64,000 nt of DNA, taken from positions 7,168,001 to 7,232,000 of the forward strand of contig OZ244999.1 of the NCBI GenBank assembly GCA_965223265.1, given 5' to 3'. This stretch comes from Planctomycetota bacterium (GTDB taxonomy: Bacteria; Planctomycetota; UBA8108; SXIK01). Below, piece after piece: positions 16,514-25,493 of this stretch; the stretch's first letter is position 1, and each line of letters begins with the position of its first letter. The translations under genes were made by a program, and so were the position numbers. A model generated the notes under the pieces. It saw nothing but the letters and a program-made list of their open reading frames with translations. It ran no database searches and was not told where the DNA came from.

Positions 16514-18070
16514 ATGAAATCAGCATGGCAGGAGCTGTCGAGATGTTTGAACGCGTACTGCTGCGAGGGAGACGCCGGAAGCTGGCCTCGCGCTGAACGG
16601 CTACTGATTCAACTGCCGTTAGATGGCTCGTCACCGCTCGAACGAGTTCACCGCAGCGCACAGTTCCTTGCCTCGTTTGGGCACACCGACGAGGCTCATC
16701 GAGTCACCGAGCTGCACCGAAAGCATCATCAAAGGATTCGATTCGCCGCGCCGGGAAGTGCTGGGTGCGAAGTGCAGCGGACGACAATCTACGATGCGAT
16801 CCACCTGGGGATCCGTATGCAGCAGCAGCGCGGCAATCCAGGCCCCTCCGTCTCCTGGAGTCGCCTTGGCGGTATCGGTTGGGTGGAAAACCTTCGCCTC
16901 GCCCTGGCTCTTCGCACTCACGAGCACAGCCGCGTGCTCGAGTGTCTACGGTCGAAAGCCCATCTCACCAACTACGACATGGCCTGCAGGCTCTGCTTGT
17001 TGGCAAGGCACTACTTCCTCCGCGGACATCTGTCGCGTGGGCTCGGCCTCATACGGTCCGCGTACCGTCGATTAGCGAAGGATGAGTCATGCGACGCTGA
17101 GCTCCGCCGCACCGAATGCTGTGGACTGCAGGGCATGATCGCGCTTCAGGAGGGCAAGCTCGATCTCGCTGAGGACTTGTTCCGCACGACGATCCGCATG
17201 GCGACCGAGCTCAAGCACGAACAACAGATCGCCTACTATCGCCAAGAGTTGGCCGTGTCCTATTCGCGTCGTGGAGACTTCGACGAGGCTCGGGCACTCA
17301 TGTGCGACCTACTCGATCACTTGAACGCCACGGAGCCAAGGAGCGACGCGCAAAGGGTTCGACGTGCCGCGATCGAAATTTCAGCAGCGCAAATGGCGCT
17401 CGACCGTGGTGACGTCGAAGCTGCGCGACAGCACTATCGCGTCGCCCACGAAGCGTTCGCCGCGACGACCGAACCAGTGATCCAAGGTCACCTGGCTCTC
17501 CTTCGCGCGCGACTCCTCAAGGAGGAGGGTGCTGCGAGGCTCCCCCACGCGCTCGCAGAATTCCAGGCCGCTGAACATCTCTTCGGCGGTTTCGGCGACG
17601 GCCTGATCCTCGGACTCTTCCGCGTCTCTCTGCACCGGGCACACGCGCTGCTGAGGTTCGGAGAATTAGACGCGGCGATGACTGACGTGCTCCGCTGTCT
17701 CGAATACGCGCGCGAGCGCCGCTACTTTCCAGCGCGAGCCGCCGGATTGCTGCTGAAGACTCAACTGCTGCTGCAAAAACAAGGCGGTGCGAAAGTCGAC
17801 AGCATGTACGAGGAAGTGCTGAGGGGTCTCGGCGCCATCGCAAATCCACGCATCCTCTTTCGAGTCGTCGCCAACCTTTACCTGCACACCTGGGATCGTC
17901 AGGACGACCTCGAGCTAACCCAATACCACCTCGACCAGCTCCACGAGCTCAAGCGTTTTTTCGACGCGCGATCCTACGAACGCCTCTACACCCGCTACGT
18001 CACCATGCCGGTGCTGCATCGCGCGCTGGCGGAGGGATTCGGCGAGACGCCGATCGAGGTGGCGGAGTGA
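16514..18070 (+). CDS. Tetratricopeptide-repeat-like helical protein
   Basis: Repeated TPR-like helices (GMIALQEGKLDLAEDLF, LAVSYSRRGDFDEARAL, AQMALDRGDVEAARQHY, LLRFGELDAAM). Confidence 0.7.
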   Translation: MKSAWQELSRCLNAYCCEGDAGSWPRAERLLIQLPLDGSSPLERVHRSAQFLASFGHTDEAHRVTELHRKHHQRIRFAAPGSAGCEVQRTTIYDAIHLGIRMQQQRGNPGPSVSWSRLGGIGWVENLRLALALRTHEHSRVLECLRSKAHLTNYDMACRLCLLARHYFLRGHLSRGLGLIRSAYRRLAKDESCDAELRRTECCGLQGMIALQEGKLDLAEDLFRTTIRMATELKHEQQIAYYRQELAVSYSRRGDFDEARALMCDLLDHLNATEPRSDAQRVRRAAIEISAAQMALDRGDVEAARQHYRVAHEAFAATTEPVIQGHLALLRARLLKEEGAARLPHALAEFQAAEHLFGGFGDGLILGLFRVSLHRAHALLRFGELDAAMTDVLRCLEYARERRYFPARAAGLLLKTQLLLQKQGGAKVDSMYEEVLRGLGAIANPRILFRVVANLYLHTWDRQDDLELTQYHLDQLHELKRFFDARSYERLYTRYVTMPVLHRALAEGFGETPIEVAE

Positions 18071-18113
18071 CCGGGAACGACGCGTAGCGGGGCGACTGTC
18101 GCCGGGGGCGGTT

Positions 18114-18420
18114 TTGCGTTTGCGTTTGCGTGGGAGTGCACGCTTCTTCAGCGTAGCAGGCACACGGCGTGTGCCGTCCGGCCTTGTCGGCGTGCGCGTC
18201 GGCCGTTCCCGTGGGTGTGGGAGTCCGTGTGGGAGGGGGAGTGGGAGGGGGAGTGGGAGGGGGAGTGGGAGGGGGAGTCCGTGTGGGAGTGGGTGCGCGC
18301 CTCTTCAACGTGGCAGGCACACGCCGTGTGCCGTCCGGCCTTGTCGGCGTGCGCGTCGGCCGTTCCCGTGGGTGTGGGAGGCCGTGTGGGAGGCCGTGTG
18401 GGAGGCCGTGTGGGTTGGGG
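18114..18420 (+). repeat. Composite repeat: two ~157-bp-period units, each a GTAG-type REP palindrome plus G-rich hexamer tracts
   Basis: GT(A/G)GCAGGCACACG(G/C)CGTGTGCCGTCCGGCCTTGTCGGCGTGCGCGTCGGCCGTTCCCGTGGGTGTGGGA starts at 18153 and 18310; (GGGAGG GGGAGT)n and (GGGAGG CCGTGT)n tracts follow. Confidence 0.85.
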
Positions 18421-18574
18421 TCACCGTACGGCGGCGGTCTTGTCGAGCGTACGCGGTGCTCGCGGGTGTGAAGTCGAGCACACAATGCACCTCCAACCTT
18501 CCGCTGTCGTAAGTCCTTTCGGTGTAAGCCGACGTAATCTGACGAATCTTTGATACAACCCGGTCGATTTACCT

Positions 18575-20665
18575 TCATAGGTCGTCGAAGAGCGTCATCT
18601 GGTTCTTCGCGCAGCCCTCCTTAGGCGGGAATCGACCCGTCGCCTTGAGCGTCGCCACGAGGCTCCGGACTCCTGGGGAGTCCAGCTCGTGGCGAGAGAC
18701 GCGCCAGGGGGCGAACTCGGCGACTTGGTTTTTCCTGATCAATCCTCGTTCGACAAGCGTACGTAATGCTATCGAGGAAACTCCTAGGTACTTGCTGGCG
18801 CCGTTCATCGACAACGCATCATCGGAGGACTGCGCTGAATTGATACCGTTGTGTTTGCGAAATTCGGTCACCTTGTCTTTGGTCCACCGTGTGGTCGTGA
18901 GCCTTCGTCTGTTAAGCACTAAGGCAATCTCGCTGTCACTATGCGCCGCGGCGCTGAGCCGCTTGATCAGCTCGAGCACCGAAACTTCCCTTGATGCCTT
19001 CGGAGAGGGGAATCGCAACAGCTCGGAGGTAGAGTGTACGCCGCCCTTCCAGTGAATCGTCAATTCCAGGCGGCGACTTTGCCGATTGGATCCAACGAGC
19101 TCGCCGCTCTCCTTGATCATGATCTCGTGAATCGCTGCTCGCAGCAGAGTCTTCTTCAGCCTGACATCAATCGTCGATCGCCAGACCAACTGGAAGTTCC
19201 GTGCGAGAGTCTCGAGACGTTTTCGCTCTGCGACAGTCAACGTCAATCTCGACGACTGCTGCTTGTGGAGTGTCTCCTTTGCCTCGGCAAGCCGCTGAAG
19301 CTTGTCGTTGAGACGTTTCTCGAGGTTGTCCGCAACAAGGCGATTCCTCGGATCGCACGCGTCGAACTGTTCGAATGCATGACTGGCGGCGTACTGCGCA
19401 GCCTCGATCTGCTGCTTCGCGTAGTTCAACTCGTCGGCTCGGCTCTTCTCGATCTGCTCGAACGCCCTGGTCGCAGCCTCGATCCCCGAGGAGTCAAGCG
19501 CTCGACACAACTGCTGCGCGACGATCGGGTCAACGCGACATGCCCCAACAGAGAGACAAATGCGTGAGTTCCCCTTTCGTGTGCCGTCGCAGTAATAGAA
19601 GGCCTTCTCGTATCGGTACCGGACCTTCAGCTGATCGCCACAGTGACCACAACGCAACATCCCCGCCAGGAGAGCCTGGCCTTCCCGCGCGGCTCCTCGG
19701 TTGCCGTCGAGCCCTCTTCGCGGTCGATTCTGCGATAGCTTCTTCAAGTTCGCTTCGTACTCTGACCAATCGATGTAGGCTGGGTGATGGTCACGGATCA
19801 TCACCCGAGCTTCACCAGGATCTTGCCGACGTTCACGCTGTTTGACCAGCCTCCCATCGGCGATCTTGCTTGTCGTCCTTGAACGACCCCAAGCGTAGGC
19901 TCCAGCATAGGTCGGATTGACCAGGAGGTTGTGTAGCGACTTGGCCGACGGCACCGCCCACCTGACCGTCTTGTTGCCCAAGCCCCGACTCGGAAACTCG
20001 ATCCCCGCGTCTCGGTAATGCAATGCGAGCTGTCGGGCACTACTGGAGCCACGGAAGTCCTGAAAGACACGGCGGATCGCGGTACGGATTCTCTCGTCGG
20101 GATCGAAGACAATCTCAGTGTCGTCGTAGACGTAGCCGATCGGTAACTGAATCCACAGCTCACCTCGCTTCGCTTTCGCCTGCTGACCTAGGCGCAACCG
20201 CAAGCGAATCGTCGCAAGCTCGGCTTCTGAGATCGAGCCACGGATGCCGATCAACAGTCTGTCGTTAGAGAGCGACAGATCGTAGACCTGCTCGGTGTCC
20301 GCGATCAGCGTATTGAAGTGCTGACAAAGCTCCATCAGTCGCGCCCAGTCCACCGAATTCCTCGACAGTCGGGAAATCTCGAGACAGAAGATAATCCCGA
20401 CTTCCCCGGCAATGACCCAGCTCTTCAGTTTCTCGAAGCCGGGGCGATCGACGAATCCAGAAGCCGACTCGCCGAGATCGTCCTCGATGAGAATCGGCTC
20501 GCGCCAGCCAAGATCGACCGCCTTGTGCCTCAGTTCGCGTTGCAGGCGCGTGCTCTCTTCGTTGTTCTTCACCTGTGTTGGCGACGATTGACGAATGTAT
20601 ACTACTGCCGCGCGCCTGAGGTGCTCGGTAGTGACGCCACCTGGATGATTGCTATCGATCCTCAT
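18575..20665 (-). CDS. Large serine recombinase (resolvase catalytic domain, recombinase domain, zinc ribbon, C-terminal HTH)
   Basis: AVVYIRQSS (catalytic Ser), DDLGESASG..DRPGF, EISRLSRN, CGHCG...YYC...C zinc ribbon, coiled coil, HTH LSMNGASKYLGVS; GGAGG RBS before ATG 20665. Confidence 0.93.
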   Translation of the reverse strand: MRIDSNHPGGVTTEHLRRAAVVYIRQSSPTQVKNNEESTRLQRELRHKAVDLGWREPILIEDDLGESASGFVDRPGFEKLKSWVIAGEVGIIFCLEISRLSRNSVDWARLMELCQHFNTLIADTEQVYDLSLSNDRLLIGIRGSISEAELATIRLRLRLGQQAKAKRGELWIQLPIGYVYDDTEIVFDPDERIRTAIRRVFQDFRGSSSARQLALHYRDAGIEFPSRGLGNKTVRWAVPSAKSLHNLLVNPTYAGAYAWGRSRTTSKIADGRLVKQRERRQDPGEARVMIRDHHPAYIDWSEYEANLKKLSQNRPRRGLDGNRGAAREGQALLAGMLRCGHCGDQLKVRYRYEKAFYYCDGTRKGNSRICLSVGACRVDPIVAQQLCRALDSSGIEAATRAFEQIEKSRADELNYAKQQIEAAQYAASHAFEQFDACDPRNRLVADNLEKRLNDKLQRLAEAKETLHKQQSSRLTLTVAERKRLETLARNFQLVWRSTIDVRLKKTLLRAAIHEIMIKESGELVGSNRQSRRLELTIHWKGGVHSTSELLRFPSPKASREVSVLELIKRLSAAAHSDSEIALVLNRRRLTTTRWTKDKVTEFRKHNGINSAQSSDDALSMNGASKYLGVSSIALRTLVERGLIRKNQVAEFAPWRVSRHELDSPGVRSLVATLKATGRFPPKEGCAKNQMTLFDDL

Positions 20666-20819
20666 CGTTCTCGCCCTCCACACCGTGGTTCTCGATGATC
20701 GCCTGCAGGAGAATCGCCACTGCCCGAGCGATTTCCTCCCGCTCCTTCGCGCTCAGCACTGCGAGCACGCTTTGATCTTCCGGCGGCAAGAACGGTAGAG
20801 TAAGCTGCGTCCACACCAT
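20652..20819 (-). CDS. Small accessory protein of the recombinase element (55 aa)
   Basis: AAGGAGGAGG RBS before ATG 20819; MVWTQLTLPFL...LSAKEREEIARAVAILLQAII; overlaps the recombinase start. Confidence 0.6.
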   Translation of the reverse strand: MVWTQLTLPFLPPEDQSVLAVLSAKEREEIARAVAILLQAIIENHGVEGENDEDR

Positions 20820-21111
20820 CGTCCTCCTCCTTGGTTCGAGTTGGTTCTGAGTCAAGGATGGACGATGGTGCTTCTTGGAGTCGAGACTCTACGATCGCCG
20901 CAATGACGAGGAGCTCCTCCACGTCGATGTGGGGCGATCTACACAGCTCCACCCACATAGCGCTCTCCTCGGTCATCCAGCACGGCACCAAGAGCTGGCG
21001 CTTCTCGATTTGAACCAAGTAGCAGGGCGGTTCTCTCGAGGTCCGCCGAACGACCGGCAGAGAGCGTCCCGCAAGGGGGTGGTAGGGATAGAAGACCGTT
21101 ACGGTCGTCAA
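20662..21111 (-). CDS. Y4bD/Y4pK (DUF5372)-like accessory protein; 5' end apparently completed only on the excised circle
   Basis: VTVFYPYHPLAGRSL...LVPCWMT motif, recalled as typical of ORFs beside this recombinase class; only a TTG without RBS here, and the frame is open up to the element end at 21138; stop overlaps the recombinase ATG. Confidence 0.7.
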   Translation of the reverse strand: MTTVTVFYPYHPLAGRSLPVVRRTSREPPCYLVQIEKRQLLVPCWMTEESAMWVELCRSPHIDVEELLVIAAIVESRLQEAPSSILDSEPTRTKEEDDGVDAAYSTVLAAGRSKRARSAEREGAGGNRSGSGDSPAGDHREPRCGGRER

Positions 21112-21139
21112 ACCAACATCAGTGTGGGCTACCCGTGGT

Positions 21140-21220
21140 CAAGGGTGCCCTCGCTGCGCTCGGCGCTGCGCGCCCTTGACACCCACTCCGCTCCGCGTTG
21201 GGGGGTGGAGTACCGCCGCC
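21140..21220 (+). promoter_or_regulatory. Right half of the structured leader hairpin of four-helix-bundle gene 1 (left half at 18430-18469)
   Basis: CAAGGGTGCCCTCGCTGCGCTCGGCGCT is identical to the copy-2 leader; arms CCCTTGACACCC (21173-21184) and ACCGCCGCC (21212-21220) pair with partners in, or reaching into, 18430-18469. Confidence 0.7.
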
Positions 21221-21265
21221 CGGACGCGGCGGAGCTGTTCACTCTACGCTCTGCGGAGGTCTCCC

Positions 21266-21589
21266 ATGCGCTTCATCGCTCTTGATGTCAGTCTCGGTTT
21301 GATTCGCGACTTGCGGGCTCCATTGCTGCGACTTCGGAGGCTTGATCCAGATCTCCATCGGCAGATTCGGCGGGCTGCTTCTTCCGTCGCGCTCAATCTC
21401 TCGGAGGGTGCCGAGCGCGCTGGAAAGGATCGGCTGCACCTCTATCGCGTGGCGCGCGGCAGTGCCCGGGAAGTCGAGACTGCCCTGCAGCTCTCGGTGG
21501 CCTGGGGCGATCTCAAGACCGAAGACGTCTCAGTGCCTCTGCAGACCCTCGATCGACTCCTGGCTCTTCTCAGCGGACTCACGCGCTGA
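21266..21589 (+). CDS. Four-helix-bundle protein (TIGR02436 / 23S-IVS / Avd-like family), 107 aa
   Basis: GGAGG RBS, ATG 21266; QIRRAASSVALNLSEG...ARGSAREVETAL family signature. Confidence 0.9.
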   Translation: MRFIALDVSLGLIRDLRAPLLRLRRLDPDLHRQIRRAASSVALNLSEGAERAGKDRLHLYRVARGSAREVETALQLSVAWGDLKTEDVSVPLQTLDRLLALLSGLTR

Positions 21590-21601
21590 GCGAGGCGCCC
21601 A

Positions 21602-21629
21602 AGCGCCCGCTACTTTCGTAGCGGGCGCT
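21602..21629 (+). terminator. 12-bp perfect hairpin after four-helix-bundle gene 1 (no U-tract)
   Basis: AGCGCCCGCTAC-TTTC-GTAGCGGGCGCT. Confidence 0.5.
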
Positions 21630-21647
21630 GCTCACGGCGCTTCCGAC

Positions 21648-21870
21648 TTCTGTATCTGGCCCTGTCTCCGTCATCCGAGTCCGTCTCTGGCTCTGCATCT
21701 GTATCTGTGTCTGTCGCTGACTCTGTCATCTGCTTCTGTATCTCTATCCGTCATCCGTCTCTGATTCCGTCTCTGTCCCCAACGTTGCAAAAGAGACGCG
21801 CCTTAAGACCGTGCGCGATTGCGATTGAGTGAGAGTTTGCGTGTACGTCTGCGTGTGGGTGTGCGTGGGC
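21648..21870 (+). repeat. Degenerate hexamer-phased arrays (TCTGNN/TCCGNN, then NNGYGT-like)
   Basis: tctgta tctggc cctgtc tccgtc... over 21648-21780 and tgcgtg tacgtc tgcgtg tgggtg tgcgtg over ~21820-21870. Confidence 0.7.
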
Positions 21871-22067
21871 GAGGGGAACACGGCACACCGTCAACCTCAC
21901 CAAACGTGAGGTCCGCCACGACGTCCCTCAACTGCCGATCGAACCTCAGGGAAAGGGTTTCTGAGCCCTTCCTGCGAAAACTTATGCAACTGTCGGGTCT
22001 GTCTCTGCCTCCGGTTCCGCCTCAAACCCGCCGCGCGAAAAAGCACGGCGGGCCCAAGACCGCAACC

Positions 22068-22391
22068 TCAGCGCGTCAGCTTCCAAAGCATCGCCTGCAG
22101 CTCGTCGATGTCCGCAAGCACCGAAGCTGTCTCCTGCGCATCGACGTAGCCCCAAGCCTCAGCAACACAAAGCGCCGTACGCACCTCTTCGGCACTGCCT
22201 GAGGCAACACGCCAGAGATGCCCGCGGTCACGACCAGAGCGCCGATTGCCCTCGCCCAAATTCAGCGCCACGGAGGACCCCGCGTCGCGCAGCTGAGCGG
22301 CAAGCTTCGAGTCGTGACGACGCACACGCGAGACAAGCGGACGCAACTGACGAACGATACCAACAGAGTGATCCAAAGCGAGAAAGCCCAT
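22068..22391 (-). CDS. Four-helix-bundle protein (TIGR02436 / Avd-like family), 107 aa, paralog of 21266-21589
   Basis: ATG 22391 (MGFLALD); QLRDAGSSVALNLGEG...ASGSAEEVRTAL; same length as copy 1 and colinear with it. Confidence 0.9.
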   Translation of the reverse strand: MGFLALDHSVGIVRQLRPLVSRVRRHDSKLAAQLRDAGSSVALNLGEGNRRSGRDRGHLWRVASGSAEEVRTALCVAEAWGYVDAQETASVLADIDELQAMLWKLTR

Positions 22392-22441
22392 GAGAAGACT
22401 CCGGTCAACCGGTTGAGTGAAACTCTCGCCGCACGCCCGAC

Positions 22442-22576
22442 GCGGCGGCGTTTCACCCCCGCCAACGGAAGCAGAGCCGGGTGCGGTCACTCTCAGAAGG
22501 CGCGAAGCGCCGAGCGCAGCGAGGGCACCCTTGAGGCCGGCTCTGCTTCCGTTACGCTCGACAATACCGCCGCCGC
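22442..22576 (-). promoter_or_regulatory. Intact nested hairpin leader of four-helix-bundle gene 2; candidate ssDNA (Frpo-like) promoter or structured RNA
   Basis: Outer stem 22442-22450/22568-22576 (9 bp); inner perfect 17-bp stem 22464-22480/22537-22553; TTGAGG (22531) -16 nt- TACGCT (22553) on the + strand. Confidence 0.65.
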
Positions 22577-22599
22577 AAACGCCCCTTGGCGGCACACCT

Positions 22600-22923
22600 C
22601 TTCTCTGCTTCTGTCTCTGCTTCTGTCTCTGCTTCTGTCTCTGCTTCTGTCTCTGCTTCTGTCTCTGCTTCTGTCTCTGCTTCTGTCTCTGCTTCTGTCT
22701 CTGCTTCTGTCTCTGCTTCTGTCTCTGCTTCTGTCTCTGATTCTGTCTCTGATTCTGTCTCTGATTCTGTCTCTGATTCTGTCTCTGCTTCTGTCTCTGC
22801 TTCTGTCTCTGCTTCTGTCTCTGCTTCTGTCTCTGCTTCTGTCTCTGATTCTGTCTCTGATTCTGTCTCTGATTCTGTCTCTGATTCTGTCTCTGATTCT
22901 GTCTCTGATTCTGTCTCTGATTC
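22600..22923 (+). repeat. 12-bp tandem repeat, ~27 units, TCTCTG(C/A)TTCTG
   Basis: Near-perfect array in blocks of about 11 C-type, 4 A-type, 5 C-type and 7 A-type units. Confidence 0.95.
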
Positions 22924-23099
22924 GCCACCGCTCGCCGTTTCGCTGCGGTCGCAGGGTGGAAGGCCTCTTCGCACGTGTTAGCATGGGCGCGTCCCCGAAT
23001 GTTCGGGAGCGGGCGCGGCTTTCCAAGCCAAAACGCATCGCTGTGACTCGTAGCCGCTGAACGCAAGTTCGACGTTCGTCTTCCAGCAAGCGACTTTTT

Positions 23100-25493
23100 A
23101 TGCGTCTCAAGTTTCCCCCAAGCCTTCTCGCCGCCGCGGTGCTGCTTCTCATGGGAGCGCTGGCTGCGGCGGAGTCTGCACCCCCTTCCCAGGCGCCTCG
23201 ACCGCTCCTGACACCGTTCGTGGAGACCTACTGCCAGCAGTGCCACGACGCAACCGGCCGGACCGCAGGGCTCGCCCTTGACGAGCTGCTTTCCGCCCCA
23301 ATGGAGGAGCATGTCGCGGAGTGGGAGTCGGTCGTCCGCAAACTCACAACGCGTCAGATGCCACCGCAGGATATGCCTCGGCCGGACGAAACGAGCTACG
23401 AGGCGATCTTGCTCCTGCTCACCTCTGAACTCGACGCAGCCGCCGAGCGTCAGCCGCGGACGGGACGTACGGAGTCACTGCGCCGTTTGAGCCGCACGGA
23501 ATACCACAACGCGATTCGCGATCTGCTGGGTTTGGAGGTGGACGTCAGCACGCTTGTTCCCGGCGACGAGTCGAGCCACGGGTTCGATCACATCACGGTG
23601 ACCGGTCTCAGCCCGATGCTGTTAAGTCGCTACATTTCCGCAGCGCAGAGAATCAGCCGCTTGGCAGTAGGCAACCCAGGGTGGGGAACTGGAGGCGACA
23701 CATTTCGAATTCGACCCGATATCACGCAAGACAACCACCGTGTGGAAGGGCTGCCTCTCGGAACACGAGGCGGCACGTTGATCCGCTACAACTTCCCGCA
23801 AGACGGCGAATACGACGTCCAGGTTTGGTTGATGCGAGATCGGAACGATGAAATCGAAGGCCTTCGAGACAAACACGAATTGGAAGTGCTGCTCGACCGT
23901 GAGCGCAAGGCGACATTCACCGTCGCGCCTGCGCCGCGCGGCCAAAGCGACCGCATGGTCGATGCGCATCTCAAAGCTCGACTCACGGTTCAGGCCGGGC
24001 CACACGACTTAGGCGTCACGTTCGTCAAGAAGCCCTCCTCGCTGCTGGAAAGCGAACGGCAGCCATTGAATGTGCACTACAACTACTACCGACACCCGCG
24101 TCTCGGACCCGCCGTCTACCAAGTCTCGGTCATCGGTCCTTTTCAGGCGAGCGGCCCGGGTGACACGCCGAGTCGCAGGCGCATCTTCGCGTGTCGGCCG
24201 GTCGGTTCCGAGGACGAAGACGCCTGCGCTCGTCGCATCCTGACGCGGCTGTTGCGTCGTGCCTATCGCCGGCCGGTAACTGAAGACGACCTCGAGACGC
24301 CGATGAAGTTCTTCTCGGCTGGCCGCGCGGGCGGATTCGACGTGGGAATCGAGCGTGCGCTAGCCGCGATCCTGGTGAATCCCAATTTTCTGTTCCGCAC
24401 AGAACGGCAGCCGGCGAACGCACGAGCGAACCGCCCCTACCGGATCAGTGATCTGGAAATGGCGTCTCGGTTGTCTTTCTTCTTATGGAGCAGCATTCCA
24501 GACGACGAGCTGCTACAGGTGGCGACACGTCAAGAGTTGAGCCGCGGCGAAGTGCTCGAGCAGCAGGTGCGAAGGATGCTCGTGGATGAACGGTCCCGGT
24601 CACTCGTGACGAACTTCGCCGACCAGTGGCTCTATCTGCGAAATCTCGCCTCGTTTGTGCCGGACGCGCGCCTTTATCCGGACTTCGGTCATAACCTACG
24701 TGACGCCTTTCGGCGGGAAACGGAGTCACTGTTCGAGCAAATGATGCGCGAGGACCAAAGCGTCCTGGTTTTGCTCGATTCACCTGCGACCTATTTGAAT
24801 GAACGACTCGCTCGGCACTATGGAATTCCGCATGTCTATGGCAGCCGGTTCCGGCGCGTGTTGTTGGATGAACGAAGCCGGCGCGGCGGAATCCTGCGGC
24901 ACGGCAGCATTTTGTCGGTCACGTCCTACGCAACGCGCACCTCCCCAGTGATTCGAGGTCAATGGATCCTTGAAAACCTGCTGGGCACACCGCCACCCCC
25001 GCCGCCAGCGAACGTTCCAGATCTGGAGGATCATACGGTCGCGGCTCACCTCACGGTACGCGAGCGTCTGGCTCGACATCGCGCCGACGCCGCATGCGCG
25101 CCTTGTCACGACGTGATCGATCCGGTCGGCTTCGGGCTCGAGAACTTCGATGCCGTCGGGCGCTGGCGGGAATCGGAATTGGGCCAACCAGTCGACGCTT
25201 CAGGCGGGTTGCCGGATGGAAGTGAATTCGACGGGATCAGCGGGCTGGAACGCGCGCTGCTCGAACGTCCTGAGTTGTTCGTCCAGACCATGACGGAGAA
25301 ACTGATGACTTTCGCGCTCGGACGCGGCGTCGAGTACTACGACGCGCCAGCGGTTCGCCGCATCCTTCGCCGTGCCAGGCGAGCGAACTATCGTTTCTCT
25401 TCTCTGATTCTAGGAATCGTCAACAGCACACCTTTTCAGATGAGGATGGCGGCTGACCAGGATGCCGAGAGCCCTGAAGACGCCGAGGGCTGA
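23100..25493 (+). CDS. DUF1592/DUF1588/DUF1587/DUF1595/DUF1585 planctomycete cytochrome-c-type protein
   Basis: Signal peptide, CQQCH and CAPCH heme motifs, LRRLSRTEYHNAIRDL, ASRLSFFLWSSIPD, TSPVIRGQWIL, ENFDAVGRWR. Confidence 0.92.
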   Translation: MRLKFPPSLLAAAVLLLMGALAAAESAPPSQAPRPLLTPFVETYCQQCHDATGRTAGLALDELLSAPMEEHVAEWESVVRKLTTRQMPPQDMPRPDETSYEAILLLLTSELDAAAERQPRTGRTESLRRLSRTEYHNAIRDLLGLEVDVSTLVPGDESSHGFDHITVTGLSPMLLSRYISAAQRISRLAVGNPGWGTGGDTFRIRPDITQDNHRVEGLPLGTRGGTLIRYNFPQDGEYDVQVWLMRDRNDEIEGLRDKHELEVLLDRERKATFTVAPAPRGQSDRMVDAHLKARLTVQAGPHDLGVTFVKKPSSLLESERQPLNVHYNYYRHPRLGPAVYQVSVIGPFQASGPGDTPSRRRIFACRPVGSEDEDACARRILTRLLRRAYRRPVTEDDLETPMKFFSAGRAGGFDVGIERALAAILVNPNFLFRTERQPANARANRPYRISDLEMASRLSFFLWSSIPDDELLQVATRQELSRGEVLEQQVRRMLVDERSRSLVTNFADQWLYLRNLASFVPDARLYPDFGHNLRDAFRRETESLFEQMMREDQSVLVLLDSPATYLNERLARHYGIPHVYGSRFRRVLLDERSRRGGILRHGSILSVTSYATRTSPVIRGQWILENLLGTPPPPPPANVPDLEDHTVAAHLTVRERLARHRADAACAPCHDVIDPVGFGLENFDAVGRWRESELGQPVDASGGLPDGSEFDGISGLERALLERPELFVQTMTEKLMTFALGRGVEYYDAPAVRRILRRARRANYRFSSLILGIVNSTPFQMRMAADQDAESPEDAEG

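Follow-up and report, generated by a model that had tools for sequence, protein, structure and literature searches.

A probable insertion-sequence-like element with a large serine recombinase, inserted into a repeated leader hairpin of a planctomycete genome

How a sequence of 2670 bp came to lie inside the leader hairpin of a gene for a four-helix-bundle protein, and which enzyme could have put it there, are the questions raised by positions 18470-21139 of the planctomycete DNA considered here, a window of 64,000 nucleotides in all. The genome is assembled as a single contig of 9.18 Mb with 60.8% GC, and proteins neighbouring the inserted sequence within the window carry PSD and PSCyt domains of planctomycete type. 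We conclude that 18470-21139 is very probably an insertion-sequence-like mobile element which employs a large serine recombinase (LSR) as its transposase and which would have entered its target by exchange at a GT core, a conclusion reached by comparing the sequences of the element, its copies, its occupied and empty sites and its relatives.

When the element is compared with its own genome by BLAST, six matches are obtained, none of them truncated, all of 2670 bp exactly and with an identity of 99.89% or more. All have the same ends, and the boundaries and GT coordinates drawn in an earlier note on this DNA are as that note gave them. The copies differ at just four positions, all of which lie within the recombinase gene, and the recombinase frame is open in each of the six. 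Beyond the recombinase, a small helical protein and a protein resembling the DUF5372 family, the element holds no cargo. Furthermore, the position of insertion and the orientation relative to the hairpin are identical in 6/6 copies, always in the hairpin 5' arm, which agrees both with the claim of the earlier note that the conserved hairpin is the target and with its expectation that other copies should share ends and site. The unique genes that flank the cassette in the window have no other match in the genome, and the six copies thus do not belong to any larger duplicated region. It is chiefly as integrases of phages and of integrative and conjugative elements that LSRs are known, and mobility is here a matter of inference rather than of direct observation, so that one might see in this locus an immobile vestige, the integration module left over from a degraded prophage or integrative element. 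Such an origin is nevertheless extremely improbable, given that the ends are sharp and identical in six copies, that there is no cargo, that open reading frames (ORFs) are intact throughout, that no more than three single-nucleotide polymorphisms (SNPs) separate any copies and that contigs consisting of the same ~2.7-kb unit are found in many metagenomes.

The junctions are the second line of evidence. On the left, GT at 18468-69 is followed by GAAGTCGAG, and on the right GT at 21138-39 is preceded by CCCGTG and followed by CAAGGG; in more general form, TGT followed by GAAGTCGAG and CCCGTGGT followed by CA(A/G)G are common to all six copies. From 1-10 nt beyond the junction the host flanks diverge between copies, the left flanks ending in GCGGGTGT, GAGCTTGT, GGAACTGT or CACGGGTGT and the right flanks starting with CAAGGGTGCC, CAAGAGTCCC or CAGGGGTGCC. 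The earlier note had held that site and element ends have nothing but GT in common, and this is correct for contiguous identity, but AAG at +2 to +4 is shared as well. Since site and element mismatch on either side of the core (T in the site and G in the element at -1, C and G respectively at +1), a conservative exchange would be possible within GT only. Serine recombinases are known to exchange strands conservatively at a 2-bp core, and the junctions, read from six occupied and 37 empty sites, fit this chemistry, showing by sequence logic a 2-bp core common to the element site (attP) and the target site (attB) without any longer duplication. Together with the LSR domains described below, this upholds the assignment of the element to a serine recombinase in the earlier note. 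The joined element ends read TGTGGG-N9-GT-N9-CACACA and are dyad-symmetric at 12 of 24 positions, as compared to 6.2 +/- 2.2 for random 24-mers from the element, 1% of which reach 12 or more, so that their description as an imperfect attP-like inverted repeat likewise stands. Relatives of the element carry a CACA(A/G)(T/A)ACC-like motif at equal distance from their own junctions. We envisage that the LSR would synapse the joined ends, as attP, with a double-stranded attB made up of the 5' arm and apex of the conserved hairpin upstream of four-helix-bundle genes, and that strands would be exchanged at the GT core with no duplication beyond GT; the core is not palindromic and would thus fix the orientation of the insertion, and a reversal of the reaction would leave the hairpin exactly as it had been.

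What the target looks like when empty can be read both from the window and from its paralogues. In-silico removal of 18470-21139 yields a sequence of 121 nt whose predicted fold is one hairpin (-82.0 kcal/mol), whereas the separate parts fold more weakly (left -11.3, right -41.2 kcal/mol). The removal re-pairs the outer stem GGCGGCGGT/ACCGCCGCC and the middle stem ACGCGG/CCGCGT, and the rejoined sequence is colinear with an intact copy at 22442-22576 (102 identical positions in 138 alignment columns), just as the earlier note had predicted. The insertion thus splits the leader hairpin of a four-helix-bundle gene, whose product scores above the thresholds of both relevant families (PF05635, 49.7 bits vs 33.8; TIGR02436, 52.2 bits vs 24). 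Hairpins of this kind occur in an A-type and a B-type. The A-type consensus, from 15 copies, has 39 base pairs, five of which, just left of the GT, are kept by way of two-sided changes, and folding energies of -72 to -89 kcal/mol are obtained for the B-type hairpins, whose stems show many compensated differences. The apex, CAAG(G/A)GTGCCCTCGC..., is nearly invariant, and it recurs upstream of a four-helix-bundle gene in a genome from another family of the same taxonomic order, in which no homologue of the recombinase is found at E<=1e-20.

The choice of site appears to be strict. BLAST matches spanning the site in the genome give 37 uninterrupted paralogous sites, which on reading the rows fall into 14 A-type GT sites, 3 A-type GG sites, 17 B-type CT sites, 2 B-like GT sites and 1 degenerate site, the B-type sites differing in their left arm and carrying CT. 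Insertions are found only in A-type GT sites, 6/20 of which are occupied as compared to 0/22 of the others (Fisher p=0.007, for site groups that were defined post hoc and for paralogues that are not independent). Judging from these sequences, it is the left half-site and the core that decide which hairpin subtype is chosen. The 3' arm of the hairpin, when read backwards, has 14 nt in common with the target and is never used, which implies that the recombinase also recognises sequence outside the stem. The hairpin itself is probably incidental to catalysis, because relatives of the element target protein-coding motifs, and nothing suggests a need for the hairpin or single-stranded attB that the earlier note had contemplated, as recombinase relatives use ordinary coding DNA. 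That the element could reach six copies would be due to its target being a multicopy, sequence-constrained repeat. The site set moreover offers a natural record of how an LSR selects its targets, with six sites occupied, 14 similar GT sites empty and 22 related sites, differing in the left half-site and/or core, never used. It reveals directly which core dinucleotide is used and how much flank variation is tolerated, and such enzymes are wanted for genome engineering.

The earlier note further proposed that the element sits in a -35 box and switches off the gene behind it. A consensus scan found no sigma-70-like site on either strand of window positions 18000-23200, nor any in an uninterrupted cassette pair of the same genome (positions 8301628-8305142). 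The TTGAC on which the proposal was built sits in both arms of the palindromic stem, and its plus-strand copy at 21176-21181, between insertion and gene, is untouched by the insertion. As the scan yields no sigma-70-like site and TTGAC belongs to the palindromic stem, we do not accept the -35 box. The related idea of a domesticated switch comparable to XisF/SpoIVCA, whose regulated excision turns the four-helix-bundle gene on, might appeal to the fact that XisF (NF041201) is the best NCBIfam match of the recombinase (E 4.4e-30) and that excision would restore the -82 kcal/mol leader hairpin. The XisF score is, however, 105 bits against a cut-off of 375 (the Ccr model is likewise far under its cut-off), the insertion neither makes nor breaks a promoter-like site, 14 comparable GT sites stand empty, and six near-identical copies along with thousands of multicopy relatives in transposase genes speak for a selfish element, all of which makes a domesticated switch highly improbable.

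The protein that would move the element has the domains expected of an LSR, namely Resolvase (PF00239, E 1.5e-19), Recombinase (PF07508, E 1.8e-13) and zinc ribbon (PF13408, 26.4 bits vs a cut-off of 25.3). R25, Q26 and S27 are invariant in an alignment of 22 homologues, and we infer that S27 is the nucleophile. An AlphaFold2 model with a mean predicted local distance difference test (pLDDT) score of 76.8 places two antiparallel helices, 392-436 and 442-471, after the zinc ribbon, and they are followed by an extra C-terminal region of ~220 aa.

The DUF5372-like protein, P0002, is modelled with a pLDDT of 90.5 as an SH3-like barrel with a helix, and a Foldseek search of the model against the PDB gave no match at E<=0.001 and weak SH3-like matches only. 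A DUF5372 match at E<=0.01 is seen in 15 of 27 aligned P0002 relatives, the best at 7.4e-5. The modelled complex of LSR and P0002 scores 0.69, whereas the best of three controls scores 0.00. In a benchmark whose counts hold roughly, own alignments having been used here, 58 of 80 solved complexes attained this mark, as against 2 of 110 mismatched pairs. Contacts agree by at least 82% between runs with a partner pLDDT of at least 74, and the interface on the LSR, at 338-345, 385-402, 476-516 and 536-546, comprises the zinc ribbon and the segments flanking the coiled coil. The modelling thus supports binding of P0002 at the base of the coiled coil, and P0002 may from this position on the zinc-ribbon domain act as an accessory or directionality factor. 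In the same part of the element, the DUF5372-like frame (20662-21111, minus strand) is stop-free as far as the recombinase start and overlaps, in another frame, the conserved 55-aa ORF of P0003, an arrangement also seen in relatives. P0003 is the small helical protein mentioned above and has a Shine-Dalgarno sequence. The features described so far are collected in Table 1.

Table 1. Positions, strands and properties of the element, its genes and ends, and the adjoining host features in the window
Feature	Position	Strand	Remarks
Left flank	18430..18469	+	Target hairpin 5' arm through core GT (18468-69); host side of attL
Mobile element (probable)	18470..21139	-	2670 bp, 58% GC vs 60.8% in the genome; all genes on the minus strand; 6 full-length copies
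Element end 3' of recombinase gene	18470..18574	.	GAAGTCGAG (18470-78), then CACACA (18479-84), one arm of the attP-like dyad; homologous end in relatives
Large serine recombinase, 696 aa	18575..20665	-	Resolvase 26-175, Recombinase 202-319, zinc ribbon 338-376, modelled coiled coil 392-471, C-terminal helical, weakly HTH_17-like region
Small ORF P0003, 55 aa	20652..20819	-	AAGGAGG ahead; end overlaps recombinase start; similar ORFs in 38/90 related loci
DUF5372-like protein (P0002)	20836..21111	-	Open frame continues to 20662; SH3-like barrel and helix; modelled binding at LSR coiled-coil base
Element end 5' of genes	21112..21139	.	TGTGGG (21123-28), CTACCCGTG (21129-37), core GT (21138-39)
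Right flank	21140..21220	+	Conserved apex (CAAGGGTGCCCTCGC...) and target hairpin 3' arm
Four-helix-bundle gene (23S rRNA IVS protein family)	21266..21589	+	3' of the interrupted hairpin
Convergent partner cassette	22068..22576	-	Four-helix-bundle gene 22068-22391, intact B-type hairpin 22442-22576; CT in place of target GT

The recombinase is by no means alone, since 3569 of 8000 scored proteins are homologues at E<=1e-20. Most of the 120 homologues listed are ~700 aa in length and are encoded on contigs whose longest length is 2.3-3.5 kb, which is the signature of a multicopy repeat of ~2.7 kb. A further 474 plasmid records, mostly rhizobial, hold a homologue, where it is annotated only as a "recombinase family protein" beside a "hypothetical protein". 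A P0002-like ORF lies upstream of the LSR gene in 83 of 90 loci (88 fetched foreign loci and two elements of the genome studied here), and the remaining seven are either cut upstream or belong to a differently arranged second element. The element hence seems to belong to a large, apparently unnamed family of ~2.7-kb multicopy elements with the same gene trio.

The targets of these relatives are instructive. Pieces of IS91-family ORFs adjoin the element in 57 of 80 metagenome loci, and do so on both sides in 41. Within a soil clade (loci L036-L097) with elements of ~2630 bp and a recombinase 40% identical to that of the window, IS91-family genes are split beside the HHPHVH motif, and in one locus, L068, Y2_Tnp from profile position 19 onwards is found on one side and the zinc domain on the other. 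Most junctions of the IS91-targeting soil elements fit a core of TG on both sides and one fits AA, and in L056, L064 and L083 the two dinucleotides are unequal. The genome studied here furthermore contains a second element of 3382 bp in two copies that are 99.97% identical (6104029-6107410 and 2468207-2471588); its recombinase is 37% identical, its gene order is LSR, helix-turn-helix ORF and DUF5372-like ORF, and it splits two different IS21 istA genes at a K(G/A)(K/R)VE motif with AA at both junctions. In L014 the element divides an istB gene at profile positions 101/98, in L010 a fragment of an IS66 transposase flanks the element, and in one pair of loci (L024/L025) identity runs ~40 nt past the expected element end. 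Judging from these targets, members of the family home in on conserved stretches of DNA that is itself repeated or mobile. The earlier note had asked whether homologous elements also hit such hairpins. Relatives were instead found in transposase genes of IS91, IS21 and IS66, and the 88 foreign loci contain neither a four-helix-bundle ORF nor, at the element ends, the hairpin motif.

Several observations count against insertion by the LSR at this hairpin, or against parts of the argument for it. The flanks are mosaic, in that the right flank from +13 to +92 (21152-21231 at the window copy) is identical in all five copies with an intact right flank even though their left flanks differ, and the longer flanks are 80-96% alike. 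Left and right flank types are combined in a shuffled fashion among the copies, which suggests flank exchange by recombination between them, and these loci must therefore owe part of their present form to homologous recombination or gene conversion, be it between cassettes or between copies of the element, by which some copies could also have spread. It may thus be argued that the element entered one cassette once only and then spread to five further loci by homologous recombination or gene conversion between paralogous cassettes, which are repeats of 80-99% identity; besides the shared right-flank tract and the shuffled combinations, this would be in agreement with an empty site at genome position 8372076 that carries the mismatched arm combination of the flanks of one occupied copy. 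We nonetheless consider spread in this manner to be unlikely as an account of all copies, since the flanks diverge 1-10 nt from both junctions, where an outward conversion tract would have homogenised them, and since relatives in unrelated hosts show equally precise 2-bp junctions in quite different targets. As observations in their own right, the stems of several occupied sites are, like the empty site just mentioned, mismatched chimeras, and the copy at 8835400-8838069 has a right flank that jumps from the hairpin apex (corresponding to window positions 21140-21154) into the middle of a four-helix-bundle gene, the 3' arm and the 5' part of the gene having been deleted, and the same loose end is found in public contigs.

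To return to insertion by the LSR at GT, its activity is deduced solely from the near-identity of the copies, and neither an excision product nor a circle junction was seen in the assembled contigs of four public runs, although such contigs drop rare variants and are thus silent on excision either way. Two deletion-like joints in public contigs (18461/18462 to 21138) were rejected as excision products of the window locus, as their extra letters match paralogous empty sites. Furthermore, the attB target lacks dyad symmetry (6/24 positions), and no close relative of the element was found among 40 related genomes searched, 39 of which are without a homologue of the LSR at E<=1e-20, the one match being partial and 33% identical. 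The hairpin as a target rests on one genome, because those 40 genomes contain no close relative of the element and the target is absent from all 88 foreign loci fetched. The LSR is also far from characterised enzymes, the best solved relative being SPbeta SprA/YokA at E 1.8e-8 over residues 25-362 only. As regards P0002, it scores below the Pfam cut-off for DUF5372 (15.1 vs 25 bits, E 0.024) and is thus best termed DUF5372-like, the score of its complex is a model confidence and not a measurement, and part of that score could reflect likeness to known complexes, because complexes of LSRs with recombination directionality factors (RDFs) have already been solved (9dxd).

The target module is in itself of some interest. 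It measures ~2.2 kb, is repeated ~17-30 times (examples being window positions 18100-23000 minus the insert, and the uninterrupted cassette pair), and contains two convergent four-helix-bundle genes, each behind a 125-nt hairpin of which one is A-type and the other B-type, and it encodes no transposase. It is placed between unique genes, and its two borders carry perfect tandem arrays of 12-bp units, such as GAGACAGAAGCA x26 (100% matches) and CCCACACGGCCT x11.6. The other-family genome that shares the hairpin apex has at least ten cassette matches, and its contigs break there (G007:C38:1-1977, positions 1-480). The uninterrupted cassette pair matches no Rfam family at E<=1. An interpretation of the hairpin as an integron attC site with its cassette was rejected, since the stem reads GTCAAGG rather than GTTRRRY and the recombinase is a serine enzyme, unlike the tyrosine integrase IntI that acts on attC, and an interpretation as part of an Avd-like retroelement was likewise discarded, the defining features being absent. 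The element at any rate draws attention to the hairpin/four-helix-bundle module as a multicopy unit under constraint that deserves a study of its own.

The family context suggests an unnamed and very abundant class of cargo-free serine-recombinase elements that is common on rhizobial plasmids and that carries a candidate new directionality factor, and by homing into conserved transposon motifs its members would act as parasites of parasites. One may tentatively go further, to a view whose chances we put slightly below even, namely that these are widespread minimal "serine insertion sequences" hyperparasitic on repeated DNA, with attB sites that evolved, lineage by lineage, in the most conserved and least mutable stretches of their hosts (the HUH region of IS91, the istA and istB motifs of IS21, IS66, and the hairpin apex), that the DUF5372-like protein is a new built-in directionality factor for both excision and insertion, and that the hairpin/four-helix-bundle modules with their 12-bp arrays are themselves selfish or mobile. 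The family-level pattern may be new; a literature search whose coverage did not extend to subscription journals and supplements returned no description of the element family, of DUF5372 or of four-helix-bundle hairpin cassettes, and the term "undescribed" is for this reason provisional.

Among known systems, IS110/IS1111-type and similar elements are known to home to hairpin repeats such as REP and attC by means of DEDD transposases and, in some cases, guide RNAs. The window element is like them in being inserted into a conserved, multicopy, hairpin-forming host repeat, but differs in its use of a serine recombinase. IS607 has a small serine recombinase, usually in company with tnpB, and low target specificity; it shares with the window element the small IS-like format, the serine-recombinase transposase and the absence of target duplication, whereas the LSR of 696 aa with its Recombinase and zinc-ribbon domains sets the window element apart, and no further tnpB-sized ORF fits within 2670 bp, so that it does not classify as IS607. 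Directionality factors act at the coiled-coil base of phage serine integrases, and the layout of resolvase, recombinase, zinc-ribbon and coiled-coil domains along with a small partner modelled at the coiled-coil base is reminiscent of SPbeta SprA/SprB. The relationship is however very distant, the LSR has the extra C-terminal ~220 aa, the element is not a phage, and the partner is SH3-like without a significant match in the PDB. Parallels are also found in the clostridial transposons Tn4451 and Tn5397, which are moved by the large serine recombinases TnpX and TndX, carry cargo for resistance or conjugation, and have a GA core and loosely defined targets. The window element resembles them in having an LSR as its probable transposase, a 2-bp crossover at both junctions without longer duplication and a fixed orientation, and excision is in either case expected to restore the target. 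It differs from them in its size of 2.67 kb, its lack of cargo, its GT core, its single, highly specific and repeated target, and its module of a DUF5372-like protein and a small ORF.

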